A stretch of DNA of 64,000 bases from Mobula hypostoma (Eukaryota): positions 54,810,001 to 54,874,000 of the forward strand of contig NC_086108.1 in NCBI RefSeq assembly GCF_963921235.1, given 5' to 3'. Positions within the stretch are counted from its first letter, which is position 1, and each line of letters opens with the position of its first letter. Under the pieces are notes generated by a model, which had not been told where the DNA came from, did no database searches, and saw nothing but the letters and a program-made list of their open reading frames with translations. Positions 9,931 to 52,785 of the stretch are shown here, one piece after another. Made by a program: the position numbers and the translations under genes.

Positions 9931-12900
9931 TTGTATTTCTACTTTTTACCAAAACATTTTTCCACATCATATTCAATTTGACATGTCTTTTCCATTCGAT
10001 TAACCTGTCTATATTCTCTGAAGCCATTCAGTATCCTTTCTCACCCCACACTGTCACTCAGATTTTTATCAGCAACATATGTGGCTATATTGTGCTTAAT
10101 CTCCCTTCACCTACAGTATGCCATTGAAATAGATTGTGAACAGTTGTGTCCCTAGCACTTGTTCCTTGATTTAAGGGTTCCCTTTGGGGGAACCTTCTAA
10201 GGGGGCTCGAGTTAGTGTGGAAACTTCGGGGCTTTGACTCAAGAGGCTTCAACAAGAAGGGCCTCAGGCCAAAGAAACAGGTAAGAAGGGTATGTTTTTC
10301 CTTTCATTATTGCTGATTTCGTCTTAGTTGCCCATTGTACAGTGCAGGCAGGATGGCAGATATGGCAGTGGAATGCTCCTCCTGTAGGACGTGGGAATTC
10401 ATGGAGCCTGATAGTCTCCCTGATAACTACACCTGTGGGAAGTGCAGCCAACTCCTGCTCCTGAAAGACCGCATTAAGGGGCTGGGGCTGGATGAACTAA
10501 GGATCATCCAGGAGGCAGAGCAGTTGCTAGAATTAAACAGGTGGTTACACCCAAAGGCACAATTCAGGGAGTGGATGGGTGAATACTGAGAGAGGTAAAG
10601 GGAGAAAGAAGTCCCCCTGAGGCCATTCCCCTCGGCAACAGGTATACCCCTTTGGATTCTACTGGGGGGGGGGGTGATCTATCTGGCAAGGCAGCAGCAG
10701 CCAAACCAATAGCACTGTGGTCGGCTCTGAGCCTCGGAAGGGTAGGGTGAAGTCAGGCAGAGCAAAAGTCATAGGGGACTCGATAGTTAGGGAGACAGAT
10801 AAGAAATTCTGTGGCAGCAAATGAGATGCCAGGACAGTGTGTTGCCTCCCAGGTGGTAGGGTCTAGGATATCTCTGAGTGGTTGCAGAATATTCTTGAAG
10901 GGGAGGGTGAGCAGCCAGCTGTCATGGTACATGTTGGTACTGATGATATAGGAAGGAGAGGGGTAGAGATCCTGCACGGTAAATTTAGGGGGTACGAAGG
11001 AGGCTGAAGTGCAGGTCCTGCAAGATGGTAATCTCCAAGTGCAATGAGCCAGGGAAGGTCAGAACAGGAAGATAGAACAGATGAATGAGTGTCTGAGGAG
11101 ATGGTGTAGGGGGCAGAGTTTCAAGTTCTTGGATCATTGGAACGTTTTCTGGGGAAAGGGAGGGAAACCAACAGCTTGGGAGGGAGCTAATGTGATTGGG
11201 GAGGGTTTAAGCTGGATTTGCAGGGGAGTGGGAACTGAAGTGAAGAGCCAGAGGTTGGGGTGGTTGGTGCACAAGTAGAGCAGCTTGTAGGGAGTTTGTG
11301 AGGAAAGGTAGACAGATGATGGAGCAAAGATGCACTCGGCCAGATAGTTTGAGATGTGTCTATTTTAATACAAGGAGTTTCATAAACAAGGCGGATGATC
11401 CATACATGGAACTATGACGTTGTGGCCATTATAGAGACTTGGATGTCTCGGGCAGGAATGGCTGCTGAGTGTGCCGGGCTTTAGATGTTTCAAAAAGTAC
11501 AGGGAGGGAAGCAAAAGAGGTGGGGGTGTGGTATTGCTAATTAGGGATACTATCATGGCTGCAGAAAAGGAGGAAGTCATAGAGAGATTGTCTACTGAGT
11601 CAGTGTGGGTGGAAGTCAGAAACAGGAAAGGGGCAATAACTCTACTGGATGATTTTTATTGATACCCCCCCCCACCCCCAATAGAATCAGAGACATCGAG
11701 GGGCAGATAGGGAGGCAGATTCTGGAATGGTACAATAATAATAGGGTTGGTGAGCTGGGTCATTTTAACTTTCCTAAGATTGACTGGCATCTCTTTAGAG
11801 CAAGGTGTTTGGATGGGGTGGAGTTTGATAGGTGTGTTCAAGAAGGTTTCCTGACAAAATATGTAGATAAGCCAACTAGAGGAGAGGCTGCACTTGATCT
11901 GATATTGGGAAATGAACCTGGTCAGGTGTCAGATCTCTGAGAGCATTTTGGAGGTAGAGATCACAACTCTATCTCCTTTACCATGGCGCTGAGGAGGGAT
12001 AGGAGCAGACAGCTTGGGAAAACATTTAATTGGTGTAGGGGGAAATAAGATGCTATTAGGCAGAAACTTGGGAGCATAAATTGGGAGCAGATGTTCTCAG
12101 GGAAATGCATGACAGAAATGTAGATGTTCAGGGAGTATTTGCATGGTGTTCTGCATAGGTATGTTCCATTGAGGCAGGGAAAGGATAGTAGGGTAGAAGA
12201 ACCATGATGTTCAAAGGATGTAGAAAATCTAGTTAGGAAGAAAAGAAAAGCTTACAAAAGGTTCACGAAACTAGGTACTGTCAGAGCTCTAGAAAATTAC
12301 AAGGTTTCCAGGAAGGAGCTTAAGAATGAAATTAGGAGAGCTGGAAGGGGCCATGAGACCATAAGATATAGGAGCAGAAGTAAGCTATTTGGCCCATCAA
12401 GTCTGCTCCACCATTCAATCATGGGCTGATCCAATTCTTCCGGTTATCCCCACTCCCCTACCTTCTCCCTATACCTTTTGATGCCCTGGCTAATCAAGAA
12501 CCTATCTATCTCAGCCTTAAATGCACCCAATGACTTGGCCCCAACAGCTGCTCATGGCAACAAGTTCCACAGATTTACCACCCTCTAACTAAAGTAATTT
12601 CTCCACATCTCTGTTCTAAATGGACGTTCTTCAATCCTGAAGTCATGCCCTCTTGTCCTAGACTCTCCAACCATGGGAAATAACTTTGCCATATCTAATC
12701 TGTACTTCTAGAAATGAATGCCAACATTGTATTCACCTTCTTCACCAATGACTCAACCTGGAGTTTAACCTTTAGGGTATCCTGCTCGCAAGTCACTTTG
12801 CATCTCTTCATTTTGAATTCTCTCCCCATCTAAATAATAGTCTGCCCGTTTATTTCTTCCACCAAAGTGCATGATCATATACTTTCCAACATTGTATCTC

Positions 12901-13552
12901 ATTTGCCACTTCTTTGCCCATTCCCCTAAACTATCAAGTTTCGCTGCCAGCTCTCTGTTTCCTCAACACTACCCGCTCCTCCACCTATCTTTGTATCATC
13001 GACAAATTTAGCCAGAAATCCATTAAAGCCATAGTCCAAATCATTGACGTGCATTGTAAAAAGCAGCAGTCCCAACACTGACCCTTGTGGAACTCCACTG
13101 GTACTGGCAGCCAGCCAGAATAGGATCCCTTTATTCCCACTCTTTGTTTTTTGCCGATCAGCCAATGCTCCACCCATGCTAGTAACTTCCCTGTAATTCC
13201 ATGGGCTCTTATCTTGCTAAGCAGCCTCATGTGCGGCACCTTGTCAAAGGTCTTTTGAAAATCCAAGTACACCACATCTACTGCATCCCCTTTGTCTACT
13301 CTGCTTGTAATTTCCTCAAACAATTGCAGTAGGTTTGTCAGGCAGGATTTTCCTTTCAGGAAACCATGCTGGCTTTGGCCTATCTTGTCATGTGCCTCCA
13401 GGTACTCCCTAATCTCTTCCCTAACAATCGATTCCAACAACTTCCCAACCACTGATGTTAGGCTAACAGGTCTATAGTTTCCTTTCCTCTGCCTCTCACC
13501 CTTCTTAAATAGCGGAGTAATATTTTCAATTTTCCAGTCATCTGGTACAATG

Positions 13553-15546
13553 TATCAATTCCAAAGAAGAAACATACAAATTAGCCAGAAAAAGCAGCAC
13601 ACCTGAGGACTGGGAGAAATTCAGTGTCCAGCAGAGGAGGACAAAGGGCTTAATTAGGAAAAGGAAAAAAGATTATGAGAGAAAGCTGGCAGGGAACATA
13701 AAAACTGACTGTAAAAGCTTTTATAGGTATGTGAAAAGAAAAAAGATTAGTTAAGATAAATGTAGGTCCCTTACAGTCAGAAACAGGTGAATTGATCAAG
13801 GACATGGCAGACCAATTGAATAACTACTTTGGTTCTGTTTTCACTAAGGAGTACATAAATAATCTTCTGGAAACAGTAGGGGACCGAGGGTCTAGTGAGA
13901 TGCAAGAACTGAGGGAAATACATGTTAGTAGGGAAGTGGTGTTCGGTAAATTGAAGGGATTAAAGGCAGATAAATCCCCAGGGCCACATGGTCTGCATCC
14001 CAGAGTGCTTAAGGAAGTAGCCCAAGAAATAGTGGATGCATTAGTAATAATTTTTCAAAACTCTTTAGATTCTGGACTAGTTCCTGAGGATTGGAGGGTA
14101 GCTAATGTAACCCCGCTTTTTAAAAAAGGAGGGAGAGAGAAACCGGGGAATTGTAGACCGGTTAGCCTAACATCAGTGGTGGGAAAAATGCTAGAGTCAG
14201 TTATCAAAGATGTGATAACAGCACATTTGGAAAGCGGTGAAATCATCGGACAAAGTCAGCATGGATTTGTGAAAGGAAAATCATGTCTGACAAATCTCAC
14301 AGAATTTTTTGAGGATGTAACTAGTAGAGTGGATAGGGGAGAACCAGTGGATGTGGTATATTTGGATTTTCAAAAGGCTTTTGACAAGGTCCCACACAGG
14401 AGATTGGTGTGCAAACTTAAAGCACATGGTATTGATGTGGATAGAGAATTGGTTGGCAGACAGGAAGCAAAGAGTGGGAATAAACCGGACCTTTTCAGAA
14501 TGGCAGGCAGTGACTAGTGGGGTACCGCAAGGCTCAGTGCTGGGACCCCAGTTGTTTACAATATATATTAATGATTTAGATGAGGGAATTAAATGCAGCA
14601 TCTCCAAGTTTGCGGATGACATGAAGCTGGGCAGCAGTGTTAGCTGTGAGGAGAATGCTAAGAGGATGCAGGGTGACTTGGATAGGTTAGGTGAGTGGGC
14701 AAGTTCATGGCAGATGCAGTTTAATGTGGATAAATGTGAGGTTATCCACTTTGGTGGCAAGAACAGGGAAACAGATTATTATCTGAATGGTGGCCGATTA
14801 GGAAAAGGGGAGGTGCAACAAGACCTGGGTGTCATTGTACACCAGTCATTGAAAGTGGGCATGCAGGTACAGCAGGCGGTGAAAAAGGCGAATGGTATGC
14901 TGGCATTCATAGCAAGAGGATTCGAGTACAGGAGCAGGGAGGTTCTACTGCAGTTGTACAAGGCCTTGGTGAGACCACACCTGGAGTATTGTGTGCAGTT
15001 TTAGTCCCCTAATCTGAGGAAGGACATCCTTGCCATAGAAGGAGTACAAAGAAGGTTCACCAGATTGATTCCTGGGATGGCAGGACTTTCATATGAAGAA
15101 AGACTGGATCGACTAGGCTTATACTCTCTGGAATTTAGAAGATTGAGGGGGGATCTTATTGAAACGTATAAAGTTCTAAAGGGATTGGACAGGCTAGATG
15201 CAGGAAGATTGTTCCCGATGTTGGGGAAGTCCAGAATGAGGGGTCGCAGTTTAAGGATAAAGGGGGAGCCTTTTAGGACCGAGATGAGGAAAAACTTCTT
15301 CATACAGAGAGTGGTGAATCTGTGGAATTCTCTGCCACAGGAAACAGTTGAGGCCAGTTCACTGGCTATATTTAAGAGGGAGTTAGATATGGCCCTTGTG
15401 GCTAAAGGGATCGGGGGTATAGAGAGAAGGCAGGTACAGGGTTCTGAGTTGGATGATCAGCCATGATCATACTGAACGGCAGTGCAGGATCGAAGGGCCG
15501 AATGACCTATTGCTACACCTATTTTCTATGTTCCTATGTTTCTATG
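13553..15546 (+). mobile_element. 5'-truncated CR1 (CR1-C) inserted into CR1-B
   Basis: RT ORFs 13792-14517, 14351-15004 and 15065-15466. (ctatgttt)n-type tail. CR1-B sequence is continuous across the insertion, with atg on both sides. Confidence 0.9.
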
Positions 15547-16698
15547 CCAGAATCTATCGATTCTTGAAAGTTCATTGTTCATGCCTCTGCAGTCTCTCCA
15601 TCTACTTCCTTCAGAACCCGAGGGTGCATTCCATCAGGTCCAGGAGATTTATCTACCCTCAGACTATTAAGCTTCCTGAGCACCTTTTCAGTAGTAATTT
15701 TCACTGCACGTACTTTACTTCCCTGACACTCTTTAATGCCCAGTATATTGCAGATGTCTCCCACTGTGAAGACTGATGCAAAATACACATTCAGTTCTTC
15801 TGCCATCTCTGCATCTCTCATTACAATATCTCCAGGGTCTTTTTTTATTGGTCCTATATCTACTGTCAACTCTCTTTTACCCTTTATATAAAAAATCTTT
15901 TAGCATCTTCTTTGATATTAGTCACCAACTTCCTTTCATAATTCATCTTTTCCTTCCTAATGACCTTCTTAGTTTCCTTCTGCAAGTTTTTAAAAGCTTC
16001 CCAATCCTCTATCTTCCCACTAGCTTTGGCTTCTTTGTATGCCCTCTCTTTTGCTTTTACTTTGGCTTTGACTTCACTTGTCAGCCACAGTAGTGTCCTT
16101 CTTCCATTCGAAAATTTCTTCTTAATTGGAATATATCTGCTTGCACTTCCCTCATTTTTTGTGGAAACTCCAGCCATTGCTGCTCTGCTGTCCTTCCTGC
16201 CAGTGTCCCTTTCCAGTCAACTTTGGCCAGTTCCCCTCTCATGCCATTGTAATTTCCTTTATTCCACTGAAATACTGACAGATTGGATTTTAATTTCTCC
16301 TTCTCAAATTTCAAAGTGAACTCAATCATATTGTGATTATTGTTCCCTAAGGGTTCCTAAACCTTAAGCTTTCTTATCACCTCTGGATCATTGCACAACA
16401 CCCATTCCAGCACAGCCGATGCCCTAGTGGGCTCAACAACAAGCTGTTCTAAAAAGCCATCCCTTAGACATTCTACAAATTCTCTCTCTTGAGGTCCAGT
16501 ACTGACCTGGTTTTCCCAATCCACTTTCATGTTAAAATCCCCAATGATTATCATGACATTGCCCTCCTGATATGTCCTTTCTATCTCCTGCTGTAATTTG
16601 TAATCCGCATCCTGGCTGCTGTTTGGAGGCCTGTATACAACTGTCATTCGCGTCCTTTTACCCTTGCTATTTCTTAACTCAACCCATAGGGACTGTAT

Positions 16699-16851
16699 CT
16701 CACAGCTATCTGGACTATTCCTCTTCTCACCCTGTCACTCACAGCTATCTGGACTATTCCTCTTCTCACCCTGTCCTCACAGCTATCTGGACTATTCCTC
16801 TTCTCACCCTGTCCTCACAGCTATCTGGACTATTCCTCTTCTCACCCTGTC
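16699..16851 (+). repeat. Four identical 38-bp tandem direct repeats at the PLE 5' junction
   Basis: Unit ctcacagctatctggactattcctcttctcaccctgtc at 16699, 16738, 16776 and 16814, with one extra A at 16737. Confidence 0.97.
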
Positions 16852-17983
16852 TCTTGCAAAAACGCCATCCCCTTCTCGCAATTCCTCCGTCTCTGCTGCA
16901 TCTGCCCTCAGGATGAGGCTTTTCATTCTAGGACGAGGGAGATGTCTTCCTTTTTTAAAGAAAGGGGCTTCCCTTCCTCCACTATCAACTCTGCTCTTAA
17001 ACGCATCTCCCCCATTTCACGTACATCTGCTCTCACTCCATCCTCCCACCACCCCACTAGGAATAGGGTTCCCCTTGTCCTCACCTACCACCCCACCAGC
17101 CTCCGGGTCTAACATATTATTCTCCGTAACTTCCGCCACCTCCAACGGGATCCCACTACTAAGCACATCTTTCCCTCCCCTCCCTCTCTGCATTCCGCAG
17201 GGATCGCTCCCAACGCAACTCCCTTGTCCATTCGTCCCCCCCATCCCTCCCCACTGATCTCCCTCCTGGCACTTATCCGTGTAAGCGGAACAAGTGCTAC
17301 ACATGCCCTTACACTTCCTCCCTTACCACCATTCAGGGCCCCAAACAGTCCTTCCAGGTGAGGCAACACTTCACCTGTGAGTCGACTGGGGTGATATACT
17401 GCGTCCGGTGCTCCCGATGTGGCCTTTTATATATTGGCGAGACCCGACGCAGACTGGGAGACCGCTTTGCTGAACATCTACGCTCTGTCTGCCAGAGAAA
17501 GCAGGATCTCCCAGTGGCCACACATTTTAATTCCACATCCCATTCCCATTCTGACATGTCTATCCACGGCCTCCTCTACTGTAAAGATGAAGCCACACTC
17601 AGGTTGGAGGAACAACACCTTATATTCCGTCTGGGTAGCCTCCAACCTGATGACATGAACATCGACTTCTCTAACTTCCCCTAAGGCCCCACCTCCCCCT
17701 CGTACCCCATCTGTTACTTATTTTTATGCACACATTCTTTCTCTCACTCTCCTTTTTCTCCCTCTGTCCCTCTGAATATACCTCTTGCCCATCCTCTGGG
17801 TCCCCCCCCCTTGTCTTTCTTCCCGGACCTCCTGTCCCAAGATCCTCTCGTATCCCCTTTTGCCTATCACCTGTCCAGCTCTTGGCTCTATCTCTCCCCC
17901 TCCTGTCTTCTCCTATCATTTTGGATCTCCCCCTCCCCCTCCCCCTCCAACTTTCAAATCCCTTACTCACTCTTCCTTCAGTT

Positions 17984-18019
17984 AGTCCTGATGAAGGGTC
18001 TCGGCCTGAAACGTCGACT
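17984..18019 (+). ncRNA. Minimal type-I hammerhead ribozyme motif in the PLE terminal repeat
   Basis: agtc-CTGATGA-a-gggt ctcg gcct-GAAA-cg-TC-gact. Stem I agtc/gact, conserved core boxes, short stem II, palindromic ACGT at helix III, GUC cleavage triplet. Confidence 0.75.
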
Positions 18020-21000
18020 GCACCTCTTCCTACAGATGCTGCCTGGCCTGCTGCGTTCACCAGCAACCTTGATGTGCGTTGCTTGAATTTCCAGCATCTG
18101 CAGAATTCCTGTTGTTTCCATAGGGACTCTACACCTTCTGATCCTACGTCATCCCTTTCTGATGATTTAATATTATTTTGTATACACAGGGCCACACCAC
18201 CCCCTCTGTCTTGTAACCTATCTTTCCGATATACCATATATCCTTGGATGTTCAGCTCCCAGTGGCAGCCAAGTTTCAGAGATGGGCACAATGTCATACT
18301 TGCCAATCTGTAGCTGAATTTCAAGATCGTCTATTTTCTTCCTTACACTGCGTGCATTCAAATATAGCACTTTCAGTCCAGTATTTGTTGCTTTCTGTCT
18401 TAACTGCACCACACCTCTATTGCCCTGTAACTCATCCTACTGGCTGCGATTATGCCTCATCTCCTGCCTGTCCTTTCTATCATCTCTGTTGCACGCTATC
18501 TTTGATTTATTTCTGTTTTTCCCCTTCCTCAGCCCTATCACTCTGGTTCCCATCCCCCTGTAAATTAGTTTAAACCCTCCCTAACAGTTCTATTAAACCT
18601 GACTGCTAGGATACTGGACCCCTTTGAGTTCAGGTGTAACCCTTCCTTTTTGTACTGGTCGTACCTTGCCAGAAGAATCCCAGTGATCCAGGAACCCAAA
18701 GCCCTGACCCCTACACCAGTCTCTTAGCCATGCATTAATATGCCTGATCATGCTATTCTTGCGCTTGTTGGCACTGGCACAGGCAGCAATCCTGAGATTA
18801 CTATCCTGGAGGTCCTGCTTTTCAGCTTTCTCCCTAACTCCCTCAGTTCTCTCTTCAGGACCTCCTCCCATGAGAATGCCTTGGTGAGCAGGATTACAGA
18901 AGAGTCCAAGGTATTCTACAGGTATATGAAAAGCAAGATGTGAGAATAGGTCCAATCAGGTGCAATAGTGGAAACATGTGAATGGAGTCGGAGGAGGTAG
19001 CGGAGGTGCTTAATGAATGCTTTGCTTCAGTATTCACCAGGGAAAAGGACCTTGGCAATTGTGGGGATGACTTACAGCAGATTGAAACACGAGCATATGG
19101 ACATTAGGAAAGAGGATAAAGCACTAAGTTAGATAAGTCGCTGGATCTGCATGAGATATACCCCAGGCCTCTGTGGGAAGAGAGGGAGGAGGTTGCTGAG
19201 CCTCTAGCAATGATCTTTGCATCATCAATTGGGATGAGAGAAGTACCAGAGGATTGGAGGGTTGCAAATGTTGTTCACTTGTTCAAGAAAGAGAGCAGAG
19301 ATGACCCAAGAAATGACAGACCAGTGGTGAGCAAGTTGTTGGAGAAGATCTTGAGAGGCATGATTTATGAGCATTTGGAGAGACATAATCTGATTAGGGA
19401 TCGTCAGCATAGCTTTGTCAAGGACAGGTTGTGCCTTATGAGCCTGATCTAATTCTTTGAGGATGTAAGAAAACACATTGAAGGTAGAGCAGTGGATGTA
19501 GTGTATATGGATTTCACTAAGGCATTTGATAAGGTTCCCCATGCAAGGCTCATTCAGAAAGTAAGGAGACTTTGCTTTGTGGATCCAGAATTGGGTTGCT
19601 CACAGAAAGCAAAGGGTGATTGTAGATGGTTTGTATTCTGCATGGAGGTCGGTGACCCCAGGGATCTGTTCTGGGGACATCCCCCCCTTTTGTGATTTTT
19701 ATAAATGAGCTGGATAAGGAGGTAAAAGGGTGAGTTAGTAAGTTTGCTGATGACACAAAATTTTGGGGTATTGTGGGTCTGGAGGGTTGTCAGAGGTTAC
19801 AGTGGGACATCAACAGGATGCAGTACTGGGCTGAGAAGTGGCAGATAGATTTCAACCCAGATAAGAGTGAAGTGGTTCATTTTGGTGGGTCAAATTTGAA
19901 GACAGAATATCATATTAATGGTAAGACTCTTGCAGTGTGGAGAATCAGCGAGATCTTGGGGTTCGTGTCTATAGGACACTCAAAGTTGACAGTACTGTTA
20001 AGAAGGCGTATGGTGTGTTGGCATTCATCAATTGTGGGATTGAGTTCAAGAACCCTGAGGTAATGTTACAGGTATATAAGACCCTAGCTAGGCCCCACTT
20101 GGAGTACTGTGTTCAGTTTTGGTCACCTCTCTACAGGAAGGATGTGGATACTATAGAGAGAGTGCAGAGATTTACAAGGATGTTGCCTGGATTGGAGAGC
20201 ATGCCTTTATAGGTTGACTGAACTTGGCTTTTCCTCCTTGGAGGGACAGAGGATGAAAGGTGACCTGATAGAGGTGTATAAGATGATGAGGGGCATTGAC
20301 TGTGTGGCTAGCCAGAGGCTTTTTCCCAGGGCTGAAATGGTTAACACAAGGGAGAATAGTTTTACGGTGCTTGGAAGTAGGTATAGCGGGGATATCAGAG
20401 GTAAGTTTTTCACTCAGAGGGTGGTGCGTGTGTGGAATGCACTACCAGTAATGGTGGTGGAGGTGGATACAATAGGGTCTTTTAAGAGACTCTTAGAGAG
20501 ATACTGTACATGGAGCTTAGAAAAATAGAGGGCAATGCGGCAGGGAAATCCTAGGCAGTTTCCAGAATAGGTTACATATTTGGCACACCATAGTTGATCT
20601 AAGGGCCTGTAATGTGCTGCATATTTCTATGTTCTATTGAAGTTGTCTCATTGGGACTTTTTTTCTTTCACATTAACCAATCCTCAGCCATGTCACTATA
20701 TTATCTCTAATACTATGGTTCTAATTTTGTTTAATAATCTCTTAAATGGTAGTTTATCACCTGTATGGATTTATGCAAACACAAATACAACATATCAGTA
20801 GGCTTACCTTTATCTTTTCAGCGTTTTCCAATCTTAAATGGTTACAAGAGATTTGTCAAACCTGATTAACCTTCCTTCCATCCATATCGAGTCTGTTCAG
20901 TCCGATCATTATTTCCCAAGTTCACGATTACCTCTTATTTTATGGCAGATTCTAAGTGATTGCTTTATCAGGAATATCACAGTAATTCGTCTATAATTCT

Positions 21001-23002: not shown

Positions 23003-23148
23003 GAAGAGACTACAGATGCTGGAATCTAGAGCAATAAAAACAACAGCTGGAGGAACTCAGCGGGCGAGGCAACATTGGGAGGAAAATGGACAGTTCCCTC
23101 TCAGATGTTGACTGATCAACTGAGTTTCTTCAGTTTATGTTTTGATTT
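23003..23148. repeat. Older inverted PLE terminal-repeat remnant
   Basis: cagatgctggaatctagagc...ggaggaactcagc followed by an inverted ctgagtttcttcag. It hosts the younger insertion at 23150. Confidence 0.5.
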
Positions 23149-23149
23149 G

Positions 23150-23270
23150 TCCTGACGAAGGGTCCCGGTCCGAAACGCCGACTTCCTATAGATGCTGCCT
23201 GGCCTGCTGCGGTCACCAGCATTTTCTGTGTGTGTTGCTTGAATTTCCAGCATCTGCAGATTTCCTCGTT
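23150..23270 (+). mobile_element. PLE-derived mini-element (about 120 bp) with a hammerhead motif; cleavage triplet mutated to GCC
   Basis: gtc-CTGACGA-agggtcccggtcc-GAAA-cg-cc-gac. TSD tttat(g/a)ttttgatttg at 23134-23149 and 23271-23286. Confidence 0.8.
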
Positions 23271-24789
23271 TTTATATTTTGATTTGCTTGGTTTTCATTT
23301 AACAGGGATAAAGTGTGGTACTCACTACCGTGAGAAAAAATGTTTCAAATAAGCAATTAGTTTCTCAATTACTAAGAAAACATGTGTTGAGTGTGGATGA
23401 GGATTCTTCCTCAAGATCTTAAGCTGTAACTTATTTTTGGTAGAGCCAATTTCTCAAGTGGCTTCTAAATGTCATTACACAAATCCATATCTGAGGCCTA
23501 TAGGGAGACGTGTTGGGCCAAAAGCTTGATAAAGGAACTGGATTTTAATTCAGGGATTCAGATAGATTTAACAAGTGAAGGCTGTCAATGAAAAACTAAT
23601 AAAGTTGATGAACTCCAAGGGTAGAAATTTTTTTTGAGTGGAGAAAATTACAGAGATGTTGATCAGCTTTTAAAACAGATAACTAATGTGAAGATAATGC
23701 AGGCTGGTATGAGTTGGCATACGGGCAGCAGTGTTTTAAATTGATTTGAGTTTTTGTATGGCGGGAGAATGCTTTCAACTGGGAGTTCACTGGAATAGTC
23801 AAACTGAGAAGAGACAAAGTTGTGATTGGTTGTTTCAGCACCTAAGGTGTATATAAGGGTTGTTATACGTAGGGAGTGATATATTTGGTTTGGGATTGGA
23901 AACTCAACTTTGAGTCAGATAGGATGTCAGGGTCCGGTTTCTCTTTGATATTCTGAATGGTTGAGTATGGCTCTTAAGAACAAAAATTGTGGTGAGGTAT
24001 TGACCTTTTCATTTTTTATTGAACGATATTAATGCCCATAGTGTATAGTTTATCAGGCAAATAGTGACGTTAGAGGGAGCCAGACAGTCCAAGTATTTTG
24101 ATGGACATGTTATTGATAACTTGCCAGATGCAATAAATGGAGTGGCTAAATCAAAAAATTTAAGATTTCTTAAAGCAAATTGCATTTGGCTGAAATGATT
24201 GAATTCCTGGAGATAATGGAGAAGGCTAATCAAGGAAATTTAGTGGGTGATTTCTAGATGTTAGGAATACATTCAGTAGCATAACACAGGAGCCAAGAGG
24301 ATGTTGGTTAAGTATTGGCTCAGTGGAAGAAATTAAACTGTAAAGCTCAGAGGATGTTTTTCTCTCTTCAGGACCTCCTACCATTTCCGAATATGTCATT
24401 GGTTCCAATATGTACCACGTCTTCTGGCTGTTCTTCTTTCCCCTTTACAATGCTGTAGACATGACCCTAGACGTTTCTGACCCAGGCACTTGGGGGGCAA
24501 AATACCGTCTGGGTGTCTTTATTACATCCACAGAATCTATTGTCTGCTCCCCTAACGATGGAAACCCCTATCACTACTGCATTCCTCTTTTCCCTCCTTC
24601 TCTTCTTAGCCACTGAGACAGACTCAGTGCCAGTGACCTGCTCACTGTGGCTTTTCCTTGATAGGTCAATCCCCGCACCCCCCCGCCCCATCAGTATCCA
24701 AAGAAGTATACTTCCTGAGGGGAACTGTCAGAGGGGTACGCTGCACTGGCTGCCTATTTCCTTGCCCTCTTCTGACAGTCACCCAGGTA

Positions 24790-27700
24790 CAATTGCAAGG
24801 AAAGGTTTCTGAACCCTCTGCAATTACTTGTTTTTTTTTGTATTAATTGCTCATAAAATGTGGTCTGATCTTCATCTAAGTCACAATAATAGACAAACAC
24901 AATCTGCCTAAACTAATAACACACAAACAATCATATTTATTTTCGTCAATGCTGAGTACACCGTTTAAACAATTCCAGTCTAATTCAAAAATGCATGTGA
25001 ACCTCTGGGGTAATGCCTTCTACAAAAGCTATTTGGAGTCAGGTGTTCCCATCAATGAAATGATCTGAAAGTGATAAGAGAGCTTAAGGTTAAGGTTAAG
25101 GTTCCCTAGGGGGAACAGTGATCACAATATGATTGAGTTCGCTTTGAAACTTGAGAAGGAGAAGCTAATTTCCAGTGTGTCGGTATTAAAGTGGAATGAA
25201 GGAAATACAATGGCATGAGAGGGAAACTGGACAAAGTTGACTGGAAAGGGACACTAGCAGGAAGGACAGCAGAGCAGCAATGGCTGGAGTTTCTGTGAAA
25301 AATGAGGGAAATGCAAGCAGATATATTCCAATTAAGAAGAAATGTCAAATAGAAGAAGGACACTTCCGTGGCTGACAAGTGAAGTCAGAGCCAAAGTAAA
25401 AGCAAAAAAGAGAGCCTACAAGGACACCAATGCTAGTGGGAAGATAGAGGATTGGGAAGCTTTTAAAAATTTGCGGAAGGAAACTAAAAAGGTCATTAGG
25501 AGGGAAAAGATGAATTATGAAAGGAAGCTGGCGACTGATATCAAAGAAGATACTAAAAGCTTTTTAAGCATATAAAGGGTAAAAGAGAGTTGAGTGTAGA
25601 TATAGGACCAATAAAAAAAGATGCTGGAGATATTGTAATGTGAGATGCAGAGGTGGCAGAAGAACTGAATGTGTATTTTGCATCAGACTTCACAATGGAA
25701 GACATCTGCAGTATACTGGACATTCAAGACTGTCAGGGAAGTGAAGTATGTGCAGTGAAAATTACAACTGAGAAGGTGCTGAGGAAGCTTAATAGTCTGA
25801 GGATGGATAAATCTCCTGGACCTGATGGAATGCACCCTCGGTTCTGAAGGAAGTAGATGGAGAGATTGCAGAGGCATGAACATTGATCTCTCAAGAATCA
25901 GTAGATTCTGGCATTGTACCAAATGACTGGAAAATTGAAAATATTACTCCGCTATTTAAGAAGGTTGGGAGGCAGCAGAAAGGAAACTATAGACCTGTTA
26001 GCCTGACATCAGTGGTTGGGAAGTTGTATGGAATCGATTGTTAGGGAAGAGATTAGGGAGTACCTGGAGGCACATGACAAGATAGGCCAAAGCCAGCTTG
26101 GTTTCCTGAAAGGGAAATCCTGTCTGACTAACTTACTGTAATTTTTTGAGGAAATGACAAGGAGGGTAGACAAAGGAGATGCAGTAGATGTGGTGTACTT
26201 GGATTATCAGAAGACCTTTGACAAGGTGCCGCACATAAGGCTGCTCAGCAAGATAAGAGCTCATGGAATTACAGGGGAGTTACTAGCATGGGTGGAGCAT
26301 TGGCTGGTCGGCTGAAAACAGAGAGTGGGAATAAAGTGATCCTATTTTGGCTGGCTGCCAGTACCAGTGGAGTTCCACAGGGGTCGGTGTTAGGACTGCT
26401 GCTTTTTACGATGTATGTCAATGATTTGGACTATGGGATTAATGGATTTGTGGCTAAATTTGCCGATGATACAAAGATAGGTGGAGGAGTGGGTAGTGTT
26501 GAGGAAACAGAGAGCCTGCAGAAAGACTTAAATAGTTTAGGGGAATAGGCAAAGAAGTGGCAAATGAAATGCAGTGTTAGGAAGTGTATGGTCATGCACT
26601 TTGGTAGAAGAAATAAATGGGCAGACTATTACTTAGATGGGGAGAGATTTCAAAATTTAGATTTGCAAAGGGACTTGGGTGTTAACCTCCATGTTGAGTC
26701 GCTGGTGCAGAAGGTGAATGCAATGTTGACATTCATTTCCAGAGGTATAGAATATAAGAGCAGGGATGTGATATTGAGGCTCTATAAGGCACTCATGAGA
26801 CTACAGTTAGAACTATTATGTGCAGTATTGGGCTCCTTATTTTAGAAAGGATATACTGACATTGGAGAGGGTTCAGAGAAGATTCATGAGAATGATTCCA
26901 GGAATGAAAGGGTTATCGTATGAGGAACGTCTGGCAGCTCATGGGTTGTATTCCCTGGAGTTCAGGAAAATGAGGGGTATCTCATAGAAACATTCCAAAT
27001 GTTAAAAGGCCTGAACAAATTAGATATGGCAAAGTTATTTCCCATGGTAGGGGAGTCTAGGACAAGAGGGCACAACTTCAGGATTGAAGGATGTCCATTT
27101 AGAACAGAGATGCAGAGAAATTACTTTAGTCAGAGGGTGATAAATCTGTGGAGATTGTTACCAGGAGTGGTTGTGGAGGCCAAGACAGAGATAGATAGGT
27201 TATTGATTAGCCAGGGCATTAAAGGGTATGGGGAGAAGGCAGGGGAGCAGGGATGACTGGAAGAATTGGATCAGCTCATGATTGAATGGCGGAGCAGACT
27301 CGATGGATCAAATGGCCTATTTCTGCTCTTATACCTTATGGTCTTAAATGAGATTGGCGGTGTGGGTTGTAGAAGTGCCCTGCCCTATTAAAAATGACAC
27401 AAAGTCAGTTTACTGACAGAGCTTGCTCTTCACAAGAAAGATCTGTTTATGTGTACCATGCCTTGATCAAAACAACTTTCAGAGGATCTTAGAAGAAGAA
27501 TTTTAGAGATGTATGAAGCTGAAAAAGGCTGCAAAAGCATTCCTAAAGACCTGAGTGTTCATCAGTCCACAGTAAGAGAAATTGTCTACAAATGGAGGAA
27601 ATTCAGTACTGTTGCAACTCTCCCTAGTAGTGGGCATCCTGCAAAGATCCCACCAACTGCACAACATGCAATGCTGAAGGAAGCACAAAAGAACCCAAGG

Positions 27701-31967: not shown

Positions 31968-32417
31968 AAAAAATTATCCATATCACAATATTCTTATGTG
32001 AAATTGTCTCACTTGCATGAGTCAATTGAACTGAGATGGAACAAAAAATAGTTTTTCAATTCTTATTTTCCCCCTATTTTGTAACAGCAAATTTTATTCC
32101 ATTTCTTAAATCTTTGGGTAATTACTTGTGAAATCGTAAGGGCAAACCTCCAACACCTGAACAGCCATACTCCTTATTTATACTCTATTCTTGGTTGGTG
32201 CAACTGTAACGAAACCCAATTTCCCTCGGGATCAATAAGGTATATCTGTCTGTCTATCTATATATCTATCATAATGTAGCCATTGTCTGTGTAGTGCACA
32301 TGCTGAATCTTGATGATGTTTATTTTCATACATCTTCCAGAATTTGGGTATCATTTGCAAGGCCAGCACTTATTTTCCACCCGTAATTGTACTGGAACTT
32401 GGTGATTTATTGATATA

Positions 32418-32859
32418 CGAGGGGTGATTGATAAGGTCGTGGCCTAAGATAGAAGGAGTCAATTTTAGATTACCTAGCACATTTATTTTTCAACATAGTC
32501 CTCTCCTACATGTATACACTTAGTCCAGCGGTTGCGGAGCATATGGATCCCTTCTTTGTAGAAGTGGCCCACAGCAGGGGTGATTGATAAGTTCGTGGCC
32601 TAAGGTAAAAGGAGATGAGTTATACAGCTCTCGTTGCATGCATGTGCAGTTCAATTCTTTGAGTGAAAATGCAGAAAGTTTGAAGTTTCTCCTCATCTCC
32701 TTCTACTTTAGGCCAGAAGACACCGACTTCTACAAAGAAGGGATCTGTATGCTCCATGACCGCTGGACTAAGTGTGTAAATTTAGGAAAAATAAATGTGC
32801 TAGGTTTTCTAAAATTGACTCCTTCTACCTTAGGCCACAAACTTATCAATCACCCCTCG
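32418..32859. mobile_element. Mariner-derived MITE (second copy)
   Basis: TA flanks at 32416-17 and 32860-61. TIR cgaggggtgattgataag. Extra internal TIR copy at 32577. FYKEGICMLHDRWTKCV remnant. Confidence 0.88.
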
Positions 32860-33217
32860 TATTTAAAAGGTTCATTTTATTATCAATGTATGCAGAATAC
32901 AACTCTGAAATTTGTCTTCTCCAGATAGCCATAGAATACAAAAACCATACAAGTAGTTGAAAGAAAGGTGTCAATCCCCCCCTTTACAAAAAGATAGAAA
33001 CAAAAATTCACAAGCTGCTAACACGTTCAACCCCTCTCTCGCACAAAAACTAACAAATCACCCAACCCCAAGCCCCTAATACACAAAAAAGAATGGTGAG
33101 AACATGTAAAAAACATAGAATTGAAAGAAGCCAATATGAACTACAGTCCAATCTATAAATCTCAGAATTTCAATATATTTATTGATAGGTTTCAGAGAGC
33201 TTTTTAAGTGTCAATCA

Positions 33218-33291
33218 ACAGGAATTCTGCAGATGCTGGAAATTCAAGCAACACACATCAAAGTTGCTGGTGAACGCAACTTTGATGTGTG
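33218..33291 (-). mobile_element. 74-bp PLE 3'-end insertion with fold-back
   Basis: 14-bp TSD ttaagtgtcaatca (33204-33217 and 33292-33305). Perfect 18-bp inverted repeat at 33250-33267 / 33276-33293. Confidence 0.85.
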
Positions 33292-36324: not shown

Positions 36325-36876
36325 CACTCAGTGGCCACTTTATGAGGTACGCCTGTACATCTGCTTGTTAACGTAACTATCTAATTAGCCAACTATATGG
36401 CAGCAACTGAATGCACATAAGCATGGAAACATGGTCAAGAAGTTCAGATGTTCAGACCTAATATCAGGACAGGGGAGAAGTGTGATCTAAGTGACTTTGA
36501 CAGTGGAATGATTGTTGGGGTGATTTGAGTATCTCAGAAACTGCTGATCTCCTAGGATTTTAATGGACAACAGTCTCTAAAGTTAACAGAGAATGGTGTG
36601 AGAAACAAAAAACATCCAGTGACTTATCAGTTCAGTGGGTGAACATCCCTTGTTAATAAGAGAGGTCAGAGGAGAATGGCCAAGCCGGTTCAAGCTGACA
36701 AGAAGGCGACAGTAACTCAAATAACCACGCGTTACAGTAGTGTGCAGAAGAGCACCTCTGAATGTAAAACTAGTTGAACCTTGAAGTGGATGGATTTTGC
36801 AGCAGAAGACCGCAAGCATAATTCAGTGGCCACTTTATTAGCTTAAGGAAGTACCTAATAAAATGGCCACTGAGTG
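36325..36876 (+). mobile_element. Tc1-like non-autonomous element
   Basis: TIRs cactcagtggccactttat.aggtac / gtacctaataaaatggccactgagtg. Internal TIR-like copy at 36821. Transposase N-terminal remnant CDLSDFDSGMIVG near 36480. Confidence 0.75.
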
Positions 36877-37222
36877 TTCTTTGACTTTGAGTAATAACCA
36901 ATTCAAGAATGCAATGTAATCACTCCTTGTTAATATATTTTGGTGTTCAAGCTTTCTCTCAGTTGCCCATTTGCTATGATTTGAAGATCTCAAACATCAA
37001 ATTTGTTTAAATTTCTTACTGCTTTTCAGCTCTATTATATTTTGGCTACTAATTTAAGTTCCCTCTTTTAAGAGGCTTAGAAGTATAAGTGAGAGCGTTT
37101 TATGAAACGTTAACCTGGTTTCAGTTAGAGGCATATGCAAGCCCTTTTGTCAGTAGAATTTATAAAGGTTTAAATCTTCCTACTTTAATTATTTTTCATT
37201 TTCATTTTTAACTCCACTGCAG

Positions 37223-44590: not shown

Positions 44591-44814
44591 AATTGATTAC
44601 ATGTTCCAGGAGTTCATATTAGGAGCAGGAGTATCTTCCCATTTCAACACTGATAGTAACCATATTAAAGATAAGTGGTTGGAAGCAGTTTAAATCTTCC
44701 ATTTTATTTTCTCCTCTCAATTATCCAATTATATAGCAAAGTATGTGATGCAAGTCAATTTATTGCTATTTCCATGCTTGGGTCATTGCTTATTAGGAAC
44801 TGGAGTACCAGGAT

Positions 44815-45845
44815 CAGTCATCAAACCTGCAGACAAGGGTGATTGTATTGTGGTCTGGCAGACTGATTACTACCTTCTAGAGGCCTACCAACAGCTCTTG
44901 GATACCTCCTCTTATCAACCCCTAGACTATGATACCACCGACAAACTCCAGGTCATCATCTTATGCACTGTCAAAGATGTCATCACATCAGAAGATCTCC
45001 CTTCCATGGCCTCTAAACTAATAGTTCCTCAACCATGCACTTGCCACTTTTACTTTTTGCTGAAGGTTCACAAACAGTACTGTCTTGTTAGGCCCATTGT
45101 TTCTGCCTGCTCTTGCCCCACCAGACCTGTCTCCAAATATATTTGCTCCGTCCAGTCTCCCCTTGTTCAGACCCTTCCTAACTACTGGGACATTTTGCAT
45201 GCCCTCTACCATATGGACAACTTCACACTCCCCGGCCTCATCTTCTCCATGGATGTTCAGTATTTATACACCTACATCCAGTTTGGAAGATGCAAGATCC
45301 TCTACTTCTTTCCAGCACAAAGATCCAACCAGTTACCCTACACCAGCACTGCCATTGGCCTGGCTGAACTTGTTAGAACTATGCCTGTCCTTTAGTTAGC
45401 TATGGAGAATGATCTCTGTTCCAAAACTGTTGGTACCACTCCTCCAAATCTTTCTCTGTTACGTTGATGACTGCATTGGTGCTATTTCTTGCATTGATGC
45501 AGAACTCATCAATTTTATCAACTTTGCCACCAACTTCCACCCTGTTCTCAAATTCACGTGGGCCATTTCTGACACCTCTTCCTTTTTTTCATTTCCCCTG
45601 CATCTGTTGCCCACCTCATTTCTCTCAATGCGAGTGGTTCCCATGCTCAGTTGCTTATCAGATTTTGGCATTGGTAGCTTTTGGTTTTCCTGCTACCTGC
45701 CTTCATTAGTTGTGTCCAGTTTTCATCTAGAGCTATGAAGAAAGATTTTTGACCTGAAAATTGGATTGTCCATTTTCATCCATACATGCTGTCTCAGACT
45801 GCTTGTGTTACTGCAGATTGCAACACCTGCAGTCTTCTGTGACTC
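44815..45845 (+). mobile_element. Degenerate PLE, RT fragment and terminal remnant
   Basis: IKPADKG..IVVW, KVHK...RPIVS, FSMDVQYLYT and YVDDCI (ORFs 44745-45395 and 45409-45738). Confidence 0.8.
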
Positions 45846-46479: not shown

Positions 46480-48400
46480 CTGCCTAGCCCCATTGACCCT
46501 CACCTGGACTGTAGCCCTCCATACCCCTCTCAACTAAGTACTTATCCAAACTTGTGTCGCAGTAAAAACCGCATCCACCACTCCTGCTGGCAGCTCGTTT
46601 TGCACTCATGCCACCTTCTGAGTAAAGAAGTGTCCCTCAGCTTCCCTTTAAATATTTCATCTTTCACCCTATCCCTATGACATCTGGTTCTAGTCTCACT
46701 GAACCTCTGTGGGAAAAATCTTAAACACAAGGGAAGCTGCAGATGCTGGAAATCCAGAGCAACACACACAAAATGCTGGAGGAACTTGACAGGTTAGACG
46801 GCATCTATGAAAATGAATAAATTGTTGACGTTTTGAGCCAAGACCCTTCATCCGGACTGGAAAGGAAGGGGGAAAACTCCAGTATAAAAAGTTGGGGGGA
46901 GGGGAAAGATGACAAGCCAGAAGGTGGGTGGGGAAGGTACCCAATATCCAACACAACATTCTCCGCAATTTCCACCATCTTTAAGAGAATCCTACCACCA
47001 AACACTTCTTTACTTCCTCCCACCCTACTTTCCACTTTCAGCAGGGATTGCTTCCATGCTTCCTTTGTCCTTCTGTCCCTCCCCGCTAATCTGCTTCCTA
47101 CAAGTGAGAGAAATGCTTCACCTCCTCCCTAAACCTCCATTCAGGGCCTCAAAACAGTCCTTCCAGGGGAGGCAACACTTTGTCTGCAAATCTGTTGTTA
47201 TCTATTGTATCTGGTGCTTCAGATGCTGCCTCCTCCATATTGGTGAGTCCTGACTTAAATTGGGGACTGCTTTGTTGAGCATCTCCACTCCATTCATCAA
47301 AAGTGGAATTTCCTGGTGCCAACCATTTTAATTCCTATCTCCATTCGTGTTCCATCATGTTGGTCCATGCCGTTGTCTTCTGCCACGATGAGGCCACTTA
47401 GGGTGGAGGAGGAACACCATGTATTCTGTCTAGGTAGTCTCTAATCTAATTACAGGAACACTAATTTCTCCTGGTTTTTTTTTCTCTTCTTTTTCCTTCC
47501 CCCTTCTCTCTTCTTCTATTCCTCACTTTCCTGTTACCTCTTCTCCTTACCCGCTGGTCACCTTGCTCGGTGCCCCTCCTCCTTCCCTTTCTCCCATGGT
47601 CCAATCTACTATCAGATTCCTTCTTCTCCAGCCTTTTGCTTTTTCCACTCACCTGGCTTCACCTATCATCTTCTAGCTTTACCTCTTTCCACTCTCTCAG
47701 CTTTTTACTCTGGCATTTTCCCCCTTCTTTTCCAGTCCTGATGAAGGGTCTCAGCCCAAAACATCAACTGTTTATTCATTTTCAAAGATGCTGAGTTCCT
47801 CCAGCATTTTTGTGTGTTCTGTGGAGAAAGGCTGTTGCCTTTACCCCATCTATACCTTTCATAATTTATATATTTCTATAAAATCTCCCCTTATTCTCCT
47901 CTGCTTCAGGGAATATAATCCTAGGCTATTTAACCTGTCTTTATAACTTAGGTCCTCATGTTCCAGCAGCATCCTTATAAGTTTTCTTTGTTCTTTTTCA
48001 ATTTCATTGATAATTTTCTTACAGGTAAGTGACCAGAACTACATACAATACTCTGAATTTGGACTCACTAATGCCTTGTGTCACTTCAACATAACCTCTC
48101 AACTTTTGTACTTCATTTTCTGATTTATGAAGGCCATTATGCCAAAAGCACTCTTTCTGACCCTCTATGGCCCTATCTTCCTAAGGCACCATCTTCAAGA
48201 AATTATGGATCTGTATTTCCAGATTCCTCTGTTCTACTGCACATCTCAGTGCCTTACTGTTCACTATGCAAGTTCTGCCCTGGTTTGTCCTCCTGAAGTA
48301 CAACACCTTAGACTTGTCCGCTTTAAGTTCCATCTGTCAATTTTTCTAGCAGGTCCAAATCCCTCTGCAAGCTTTGAAACCCTTTTTCGCTATGCCTCCA
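46480..48400 (-). mobile_element. CR1 3' fragment hosting a PLE insertion
   Basis: Minus-strand CR1 3' region at 46480-46717, resuming at 47818. Confidence 0.7.
46718..47817 (+). mobile_element. PLE fragment with an inverted upstream terminal repeat
   Basis: 46722-46935 is an inverted copy of the 3' end, followed by a GIY-YIG remnant (VIYCIWCFRCCLLHIGES) and a direct 3' end. Imperfect TSD tctgtgggaaaa / tctgtggagaaa. Confidence 0.78.
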
Positions 48401-50430: not shown

Positions 50431-50898
50431 TACAGGAGTATCTGTGCAGAAGATGACTCTGACAAGAAATGATACAGAGCGTGTGGTGGGGTGGGTTAGT
50501 GGATGGAGGTATTGATCAGCCTCACTGCATGGGGAAAGTAACTGTTTCTGAGTCTGGTGGTCTTAGCATGGATGCTGTTTTGTCTCCTCTTCAGTGGGAG
50601 TGGGACAAGCAGTCTATGAGCAGGCTGTTGAAGTGCAGTTGCCTTTGTGGAATAATCTAAAACAAGAGCTTCAGGTTAAAGAGTTACTGATTTAAGACAT
50701 AAAAAGGGAGGAACATCTTTTCCCAGAATGCTCCCACTCTTTTTCCCCAGAGAACTGTATTGTTGAATGTATTTAAGACCGAGATAGATTTTGCACTGAA
50801 GGGTAATTGCAGGTTATTGTGTACAGGTAGTAAAATGGAGCTGAGGCCAACATCAAGCCAGCTAGGCTCTTTTTGAATGTCAGAACAGTTCCTACTTA

Positions 50899-51139
50899 AA
50901 CACGAGGAAATCTGTAGATGCTGGAATTTCAAGCAACACACATAAAAGTTGCTGGTGAATGCAGCAGGCCAGGCAGCATCTATAGGAAGAGGTACGGTCG
51001 ATGTTTTGGGCTGAGACTCTTCGTCAGGACCTTTCATCAGGGTCCTGACGAAGGGTCTTGGCCTGAAACATCGACTGTACCTCTTCCTATAGATGCTGCC
51101 TGGCCTGCTGCGTTCACCAGCAACTTTTATGTGTGTTGC
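50899..51139. mobile_element. 241-bp palindromic PLE-derived element with two divergent hammerhead motifs
   Basis: 14-bp TSD acagttcctactta (50885-50898 and 51140-51153). 99-bp inverted arms at 50933-51031 and 51041-51139. Confidence 0.9.
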
Positions 51140-52690
51140 ACAGTTCCTACTTATGTTGTACTCTGTCCATTTTATCAATCTGAGCAGTTCTATGTCTTTT
51201 ACCTCTTATTTCACCATTATTCTGAGACACATGTCATGTGCAAGTTTCCTTCTGCCATTCACAAAGCACCTTGCTGCTTTGATGTTTGTCTTCCCTCTAC
51301 TTTGCTGCCTATTCCCCATAACTGATTCCACTTTAGGGCAATATCTATTACTCTACATTTCTTTTCAGTTGTGTTTTAGCCATTCGACTGGTAGCACTCC
51401 TCCTTATGAATCCCAGGTTTGTGTGTTTCTCACTCTCACTTAAAAATTCCTGAGTGAGTCAGAGATGCTAAACGGATGCACTGTGGTGGTACTTCGGTGA
51501 AAAAGAACTGAGTTATCCCAGTGTTGTGGCAAGAAAGGGGAATAGAAACTTTGGATGGAAGCATTTATATTGTTGGTTTATGTAGGGAACAAGTAGAGAA
51601 GCCGAGTAAAGAGGAAGATTTTGGGAGTGGCAAATCTGAAGTATGGGAGAAAAAGTAGTGAGAGAAGCCATTTCAGGATGAAGGCAGGATGAAGGCAGAA
51701 GGAAAGCTGGAGTAAGTTTGGTGAGTAAGAGGAAGGGTGTAAAATCTGATGACAGTCATGGTGATAGAAGTCCATGCCTTCTCTACTTAGAATTTAGGGA
51801 TGTTAGATAGATTTAAGAACTCGGTGGTGTAGGAAAAAGTGTCTTGGATGATTGTTTTCCTCTCTTCTGAGGAGAAGGTGCATCATCTATCACCTTGGTA
51901 CTTGACAGTTGAATGGTGTTTTGAAGGTTGGGTTGTCAAATTGTGCTTTACTGTGGAGTATGAGAGAGAGAGCAAGGGAGAATAATTGGGAACACCTGCT
52001 TCTAGAAGATTTTCAAATGTCTGAGAGTCGTCCACCAAGCTGGGTGTAGTCTAACTTGAACAGACTTTGGTCTACTTAAACAGGAAATGTTAAGTTTTTT
52101 TCTAGTTTTATTTTTAAAGTACAGTTCATTATTTATTTGGAAATCAAATAAAATACTTCTAAATTAATGTATTAAAAGGAGCAAGTACTTTAAGCATGTT
52201 ATGTCTTAATTATGAAAATTACAAGTAATGAGGTTTGAAATGTTTCATAATTGGGTGAGGGAAGGTAGTGGGGGCTGGAACAATAATCTGTTGATGACTT
52301 TCATGTTCCAGGATGTGAATGGTTACTACAGTATTTGATTAGTTCTTAACTATCTGAAAGAATCTTGGTCAACACCAAAATGTTACAGCTAACTTGAACC
52401 AGAAACACACTCAATGTGTTCTTTGTACAGGGTAGCCTTAAGCAATGTTTTTGAACTGCAGTGGAAAGGCATTTTTCATATAGCCTTTGTAATAGAATAG
52501 CTGTTCTGGGCAGAATATTATTACCAATAAAAAAGCCAGATTGTCATGGCTGGTATCGATTCCTGGCTCTAGTACAACAAATTTATAGAAAACTGCTGGC
52601 TGAATTTGATCTATGTTTTAAAGGTAGAAATTAAAATAAAAATAGGCTGCATTGATGAAAAGGATTATGCAGTGATTAACTTATTTACCA

Positions 52691-52785
52691 ACATACATCA
52701 AAGTTGCTGGTGAACGCAGCAGGCCAAGCAGCATCTATAGGAAGAGGCGCAGTCGACGTTTCAGGCCGAGACGCTTCGTCAGGAC
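52691..52785 (-). mobile_element. PLE-derived mini-element (about 95 bp) with a hammerhead motif
   Basis: TSD acttatttacca (52679-52690 and 52784-52795). The minus strand reads agtc-CTGACGA-agcgtctcggcct-GAAA-cg-TC-gact. Confidence 0.87.

Follow-up and report, generated by a model that had tools for sequence, protein, structure and literature searches.

Positions 50899-51139 of the window (the whole 64-kb stretch of DNA that was analysed) very probably carry one old head-to-head insertion of an endonuclease-bearing Penelope-like element (PLE) in a ray-like cartilaginous fish, with the palindrome made at integration. The locus is taken to have decayed neutrally since that event and to be dead as a ribozyme.

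Architecture of the insertion

The 241-bp insert consists of a one-sided tail of 34 bp followed by 99, 9 and 99 nt, and is flanked by a target-site duplication (TSD) that is identical at 14 of 14 positions (50885-50898 and 51140-51153). Its features are as follows.

50885..50898, + strand: left TSD copy, 14 bp (direct-repeat match, 100%)
50899..50932, - strand: PLE tail, 34 bp, the family's outer 3' end (aligns with copy ends at 18.1k, 23.3k, 33.2k and 46.7k)
50933..51031, - strand: left arm, a pLTR stub from hammerhead helix I to the inner 3' end, joined to the tail
50997..51030, - strand: left minimal type I hammerhead motif, core broken (AAAA for GAAA; ACAT for ACGT)
51031..51041, - strand: junction, 11 nt, apparently a slipped re-copy of the core start (9-nt loop at 51032-51040 plus one base on each side)
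51041..51139, + strand: right arm, a tail-less pLTR stub (92% identical to 17985-18082 and 52689-52785)
51042..51075, + strand: right minimal type I hammerhead motif, helix III pair lost (ACAT for ACGT)
51140..51153, + strand: right TSD copy (direct-repeat match)

An earlier, sequence-only reading had described the locus as a 241-bp palindrome with two hammerheads, inserted as a single unit. Much of that description stands: the 14-bp TSD is perfect, the two inverted arms (50933-51031 and 51041-51139) are 99 nt each, 93% complementary and 9 nt apart, the motif text in both confirms that each begins at hammerhead helix I and points outward, and the single perfect TSD enclosing both arms bears out one insertion event. 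The palindrome proper, however, is only 207 bp long, and the other 34 bp (50899-50932), which had gone undescribed, form the tail on one side. This one-sided tail is the diagnostic feature of the insert. The right arm is the same sequence as the left arm plus tail, on the opposite strand and 34 nt shorter; it ends 1-3 nt from the ends of the tail-less copies at 33.3k, 47.8k and 52.7k. In run X1, 460 contigs have a loose end at the tail.

The fragment of a third core that had been noticed at the spacer was also found, since 10 of the 11 letters at 51031-51041 agree with the start of the core in the 17-kb copy, or 12 of 13 with two more bases; among random 11-mers, 49 in 20,000 matched the core start as well. 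The predicted RNA fold of the locus has an energy of -203.4 kcal/mol (z -26.9), and none of 200 shuffles was equally good. Stop-free frames traverse the element on both strands. A protein search with the stop-free frame across the junction gave one match among three candidates, which covered one arm only, and because this sole database match is a predicted protein containing one arm, we take the frames as by-products of the repeat, and the insert can still be called non-coding. That protein, from Mobula hypostoma, includes the translation of one arm at 88% identity, which places the PLE family in rays. It is a predicted STARD3NL isoform, in which the translated arm is an apparent exonisation or a gene-model artefact.

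Family identity and sister insertions

Judged from their sequence, the tail and both arms are the 3' end of a GIY-YIG PLE, that is, its pLTR with a minimal hammerhead. Within the window, BLAST matched the element at 17985-18116, 23149-23272, 33220-33278, 46724-46857, 47735-47771 and 52689-52785, with a further weak and older piece at 23014-23075, and the left arm plus tail is 86% identical to 17985-18116 over 132 nt. The insertions to which these matches belong include the following.

16695..18117, + strand: 5'-truncated coding copy, same PLE family as the palindrome (GIY-YIG frame 17163-17684, tail, 11-bp TSD)
23149..23272, + strand: solo tailed stub from hammerhead helix I (TSD of ~16 bp with one mismatch, by eye)
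33218..33291, - strand: second fold-back of the same family, 74 bp, tail on one side (no hammerhead)
46724..47817, no strand given: third, older head-to-head insertion (decayed TSD, 12/17)
52689..52785, - strand: solo tail-less stub from hammerhead helix I (12-bp TSD, by eye)

The copy at 16695-18117 is an insertion of ~1.4 kb with intact hammerhead text at 17985, and the identity of 86-92% to its 3' end upholds the PLE RT/GIY-YIG origin that had been proposed for the palindrome. A Pfam scan of six frames matched GIY-YIG (PF01541) in one of them, the frame 17163-17684 (E=1.8e-4, 22.2 bits, just below the cut-off of 22.6). The same frame carries a C-x4-C-x2-C linker, and a CX2-5CxxC linker before the endonuclease is given for Neptune elements (PMC8557442). 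A DKG motif is present in the broken frame 44694-45395, for which Pfam gave no match. This endonuclease-bearing PLE would probably belong to the Neptune clade. The 17-kb copy also has a short tandem triplication at its 5' start (16699-16854).

The window holds three head-to-head insertions, of 74, 241 and ~1,090 bp, whose ends are common and whose centres and lengths differ. The fold-back at 33218-33291 has its own perfect 14-bp TSD, another centre and the same tail-less end opposite the tail, while the insertion at 46724-47817, which belongs to an older subfamily of the PLE, has very unequal arms, a tailed copy of ~200 nt on the - strand and a tail-less copy of ~870 nt on the + strand. Since these sister insertions share the ends of the 241-bp unit and not its centre, it is the centre that is the variable part. 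That the 74-bp fold-back lacks a hammerhead indicates that the ribozyme is dispensable for the head-to-head geometry, and the solo copy at 52689-52785, tail-less and with its own TSD, indicates that the tail-less end can by itself delimit an insertion.

Of seven hammerhead-bearing copies or arms, four begin no more than 2 nt from the 5' edge of helix I (23149, 52785, 51030 and 51042), and loose ends of 243 X1 contigs fall at 51043, which suggests a defined RNA 5' end or an RT stop at this edge. Longer copies (17960-17985, 46858-46880 on the - strand and 47710-47735) have a splice-acceptor-like pyrimidine run plus AG before the hammerhead; in Drosophila Penelope an intron ends at helix I (PMC4209133).

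Other repeats of the window include an unrelated inverted-repeat family in several partial copies (32415-32862, 2391-2710 and 285-401), LINE-type RT copies in both orientations (433-2380, 12355-16400 and 25056-27344), with an RVT_1 match at 972-2303 (E=3.5e-27), and a short hairpin at 36815-36881 with a weak Rfam mir-9256 match (30 bits vs 80), which looks like a small DNA-transposon remnant.

Hammerhead motifs and predicted activity

The hammerheads in the arms and other copies were recognised by text pattern; in Rfam, no hammerhead model matched, and of three window matches at E<=1 none fell at the 241-bp locus. The text is intact in the copies at 17985 and 52785. At the palindrome each strand has one motif only, inverted relative to the other, and both are altered, in agreement with the decay that had been noted in the two cores. 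In the transcript, the antisense of each motif comes before the motif itself. To impose helices I and II on the fold would cost 56.6 kcal/mol on the + strand and 35.7 on the - strand of the palindrome, whereas the single copies at 17985 and 52785 would pay 4.8 and 9.7, respectively (the 23k copy lies outside the hammerhead pattern used for this comparison). By these fold models the predicted hairpin buries the hammerhead on each strand, and folding disfavours the ribozyme by 36-57 kcal/mol. As GAAA is lost on the left and the ACGT pair is lost in both motifs, self-cleavage of either polarity is unlikely. Minimal PLE hammerheads are reported to do without helix III, single motifs giving no cleavage and dimers or trimers low cleavage (PMC4209133). 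The left arm's non-CpG change, at 50996, would pair G-C with a spacer-derived base at the end of helix I; it is one change only, in a dead core.

Contig depth across the centre

Contigs from 4 of 23 runs were aligned to 50726-51325 at 80% likeness; their depth is not copy number, and the single-copy equivalents given here are rough bounds. In run X1 both flanks matched with no differences at a single-copy depth of 14.1-14.5, the bins of the arms reached depths of up to 1.2e7, and the depth at 51033-51036 was ~1,340, or ~94 single-copy equivalents, with ~65 equivalents carrying the window's own letter at 51036. The centre therefore lies at ~1.1e-4 of the peak arm depth, with an upper bound of ~95 single-copy equivalents of mixed letters; in runs X5 and X12 it had 427-550 depth units. 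Contigs crossing the centre carry other letters (11, 8, 8 and 12 at 51036, 51038, 51038 and 51040, respectively) and several gaps, and the sole one among the contigs listed differs by 14 letters and 8 gaps in 111.

Among the 15 joints listed of 360, 14 connect the left arm with the right, no two of them at the same pair of positions, and three of the joints listed are exactly mirror-symmetric; their sides are short (20-39 nt), and such joints can stem from other repeats. Multi-copy centres were found elsewhere, at 50968/51104 (depth 227 in X1, where single copy is 14) and at 50982/51089 (depth 261 in X5), so that some palindromic joints are amplified or recur exactly. With the centre at about 1/10,000 of the arm peak and many other centres present, the amplified unit would be the arm and not the palindrome. 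Because the spacer equals the arm end at 12 of 13 positions, palindromes or slip duplicates joined at the hammerhead start align across it, and we infer that the excess depth of the centre comes from other palindromes and from one-strand slip duplicates.

Age, decay and mismatch pattern

The arms (within 50933-51139) are mismatched at seven positions, each of which gives G:U on the + strand (a two-sided chance of 1 in 64, remarked on post hoc); by the family's common letters they are six C-to-T and one A-to-G on that strand. Five of the seven are at CpG sites, where changes are expected under neutral decay in methylated DNA. The all-G:U skew is unaccounted for by neutral decay and is possibly due to chance. 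Other fold-backs of the window lack the skew (7:7, 5:3, 0:2 and 0:1), and distant LINE pairs, which do not pair, lean the same way as the arms (31:18 and 29:24). The arms have diverged by 7%.

In organism B (run X5) one contig of the left flank reaches 24 nt into the tail, with 5 differences in 197, so that the flank differs by 2.5% between organisms A and B; its reach is below the 31-nt bridging rule, and it is unlike what would be expected for an empty site in organism B. In organism D (run X12) a contig of depth 6.5 covers 51150-51324 and stops before the arm, and a second contig of equal depth lies at 50870, which suggests an empty site. Run X9, RNA only by guess, has near-zero depth on the unique flanks and is uninformative on expression or editing.

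Proposed origin and alternatives

Reading the top strand onward from the left TSD, one enters the antisense of the RNA beginning at the tail end; reading the bottom strand onward from the right TSD, one enters the antisense beginning at the tail-less end. This arrangement matches what two first-strand cDNAs would leave if they had been primed at a cut staggered by 14 nt. In the pathway that we propose, the PLE protein would cut both target strands 14 bp apart, reverse transcription would be primed from each cut, once at the outer and once at the inner start site, and each cDNA would extend to the 5' edge of the hammerhead. One cDNA would slip back on a 3-nt repeat and re-copy 11 nt, after which the two cDNAs would be joined. 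The cDNA end is GAC and the same triplet lies 13 nt earlier, so the third core in the spacer would be explained by re-annealing at the earlier GAC, which re-copies the core start. The protein of a PLE of Anolis, a predicted dimer, cleaves and extends both target strands, with two start sites that bracket the tail and with no need of hammerhead cleavage (PMC11167929).

A close relative of this pathway would build the second arm by fold-back, with the tail-primed cDNA turning at the hammerhead start and being copied back to the inner site. We hold this variant to be possible but distinctly the weaker one; as only one inferred step differs, it is counted inside the probability given to the head-to-head insertion, of which it takes about a third. 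Self-priming has been proposed for palindromic PLE junctions (PMC3846280), the three mirror-symmetric joints among those listed would fit it, and ACAT and other subfamily letters are common to both arms, although these letters are frequent in the family; against it stand the solo stub at 52689-52785, which has a TSD and no tail, and the great inequality of the two arms of 46724-47817. It is improbable, in our estimate, that the palindrome is itself a mobile unit, as would be the case if a hairpin RNA with this centre were retrotransposed by PLE proteins to give a small non-autonomous subfamily of tens of copies. Non-coding DNA is mobilised in trans by PLE proteins (PMC3846280), two further joints are present in multiple copies, and the centre has a depth well over single copy (~65-95 equivalents in X1; 427-550 units in X5 and X12). 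The contigs that supply this depth, however, are of mixed letters and gaps, other palindromes starting at the hammerhead would align across a spacer so like the arm end, and the right end of the insert falls at the inner priming site of the family, where the copy of a whole hairpin would not have to end.

Still less probable is that the locus has been kept as a structured RNA on the + strand, as a substrate for editing or small RNAs. The G:U nature of all seven mismatches leaves the fold fully paired, and the tail end joins the same flank in organism B; yet the unskewed fold-backs and the leaning of the unpaired LINE pairs speak against it, the arms are 7% diverged vs 2.5% in the flank between organisms A and B, and the insertion is probably absent in organism D. 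At the very bottom of the scale we place a site hit twice by separate insertions, or an artefact of assembly. Copies of the family lie extremely densely, and no contig among those listed spans the window's own centre, but a single perfect TSD surrounds both arms with no target remnant between them, the seven arm differences show a CpG-decay pattern unlike that of an artefactual mirror, and X1 contigs join each flank to the element with no differences, X5 confirming the left joint. A single head-to-head integration of one PLE thus remains the reading that we prefer.

Comparison with known systems

Adjacent inverted copies, 5'-truncated, with a tail of 30-40 bp at one end and one TSD, are common in PLEs (PMC8557442, PMC3846280), and the 241-bp insert is a decayed, dead instance of this published insertion form. 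As in the inverted-pLTR insertions of endonuclease-bearing (EN+) PLEs such as Pen2a_Av of Adineta vaga (PMC3846280; PMC8557442 Fig. 2), the copies are head-to-head with a hammerhead in the pLTR, the tail is at one end only (34 bp here vs 30-40), and one TSD surrounds the unit. It departs from the rotifer cases in that both copies are pLTR alone, without an ORF remnant, and in that its TSD is 14 bp vs 8-10 bp there (PMC3846280). The motifs resemble the minimal type I hammerheads of metazoan PLEs in the extra base before helix II, the lack of a loop III and the palindromic positions 15.2-16.2 (PMC4209133). Dual hammerheads on opposite strands, ~100-700 bp apart, are described in Schistosoma (Cervera and de la Pena 2014, PMC4209133), whereas here 11 nt separate the motifs, and letters of the core or of helix III are missing from both. 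Two RT starts bracketing the tail, and the cutting and extension of both target strands, would be shared with Poseidon of Anolis (PAc; Frangieh et al. 2024, PMC11167929), for which ribozyme activity was not needed for insertion in vitro; that element is of another clade and host, and a palindromic product is not among the reconstitutions in the portion of that paper available to us.

The suggestion of a MITE-like or retrozyme- or viroid-like propagating palindrome fared less well, as the ends of the insert are the family's two ordinary 3' ends, tailed and tail-less, its sister insertions have the same ends with other centres, one of them without a hammerhead, and the depth of the centre is ~1e-4 of the arm peak. 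MITEs have terminal inverted repeats at both ends, and viroid-like RNAs may have hammerheads in both polarities. The insert is like these in being short, hairpin-forming and TSD-flanked, with hammerhead text on both strands; a MITE was nevertheless rejected, since terminal inverted repeats are absent, the inverted match beginning 34 bp inside the left end, so that the termini are not inverted repeats of each other and the tail is on one side. Unlike viroid-like RNAs, the locus gives, from its sequence, no sign of a circle or a working core. Non-LTR retrozymes are likewise non-coding and pLTR-related with a type I hammerhead, but they are head-to-tail tandems with at least two hammerheads on one strand (PMC7761336; bioRxiv 10.64898/2026.07.22.740005). 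This assignment too was set aside, as complete head-to-tail hammerheads are absent here and there is one altered, broken motif per strand, in inverted orientation.

A pattern for the junction had no matches in viral contigs and found 12 loci in metagenome contigs, none with a family-level match to the 17-kb PLE copy (three had only hammerhead matches of 21-32 nt). Five (L001, L002, L005, L008 and L010) were set aside for want of hammerhead text, and the other seven have it, by pattern match, on one or both sides of a head-to-head junction. Related loci with different centres formed a set of three (L003, L007 and L012) and a pair (L004 and L009); the only shared centre, that of L006 and L011, is one locus seen twice. 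A core fragment like the one at the 241-bp locus lies in the spacer of L004, whose family is unrelated. Hammerheads paired head-to-head around differing centres thus occur in families other than this PLE too. Two of the loci set aside (L002:279-317 and L005:401-439) are 96% identical and GC-rich, with inverted repeats of 12-13 bp around a 15-bp spacer and no hammerhead, and may represent a recombination site. In the literature, screened by title and start of abstract and with subscription papers mostly outside its scope, no palindromic PLE family was found in cartilaginous fishes.

Significance

If, improbable as we hold it to be, the palindrome does propagate as a unit, it would show a new way in which a non-autonomous element arises from a by-product of a PLE, with head-to-head integration products re-entering the cycle as templates. 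The value of the 241-bp locus is otherwise collective rather than individual. A genome with so many stubs offers thousands of junctions by which two-strand priming could be separated from fold-back, and the question of why the short copies start at the 5' edge of the hammerhead bears on the role of the ribozyme in PLEs.
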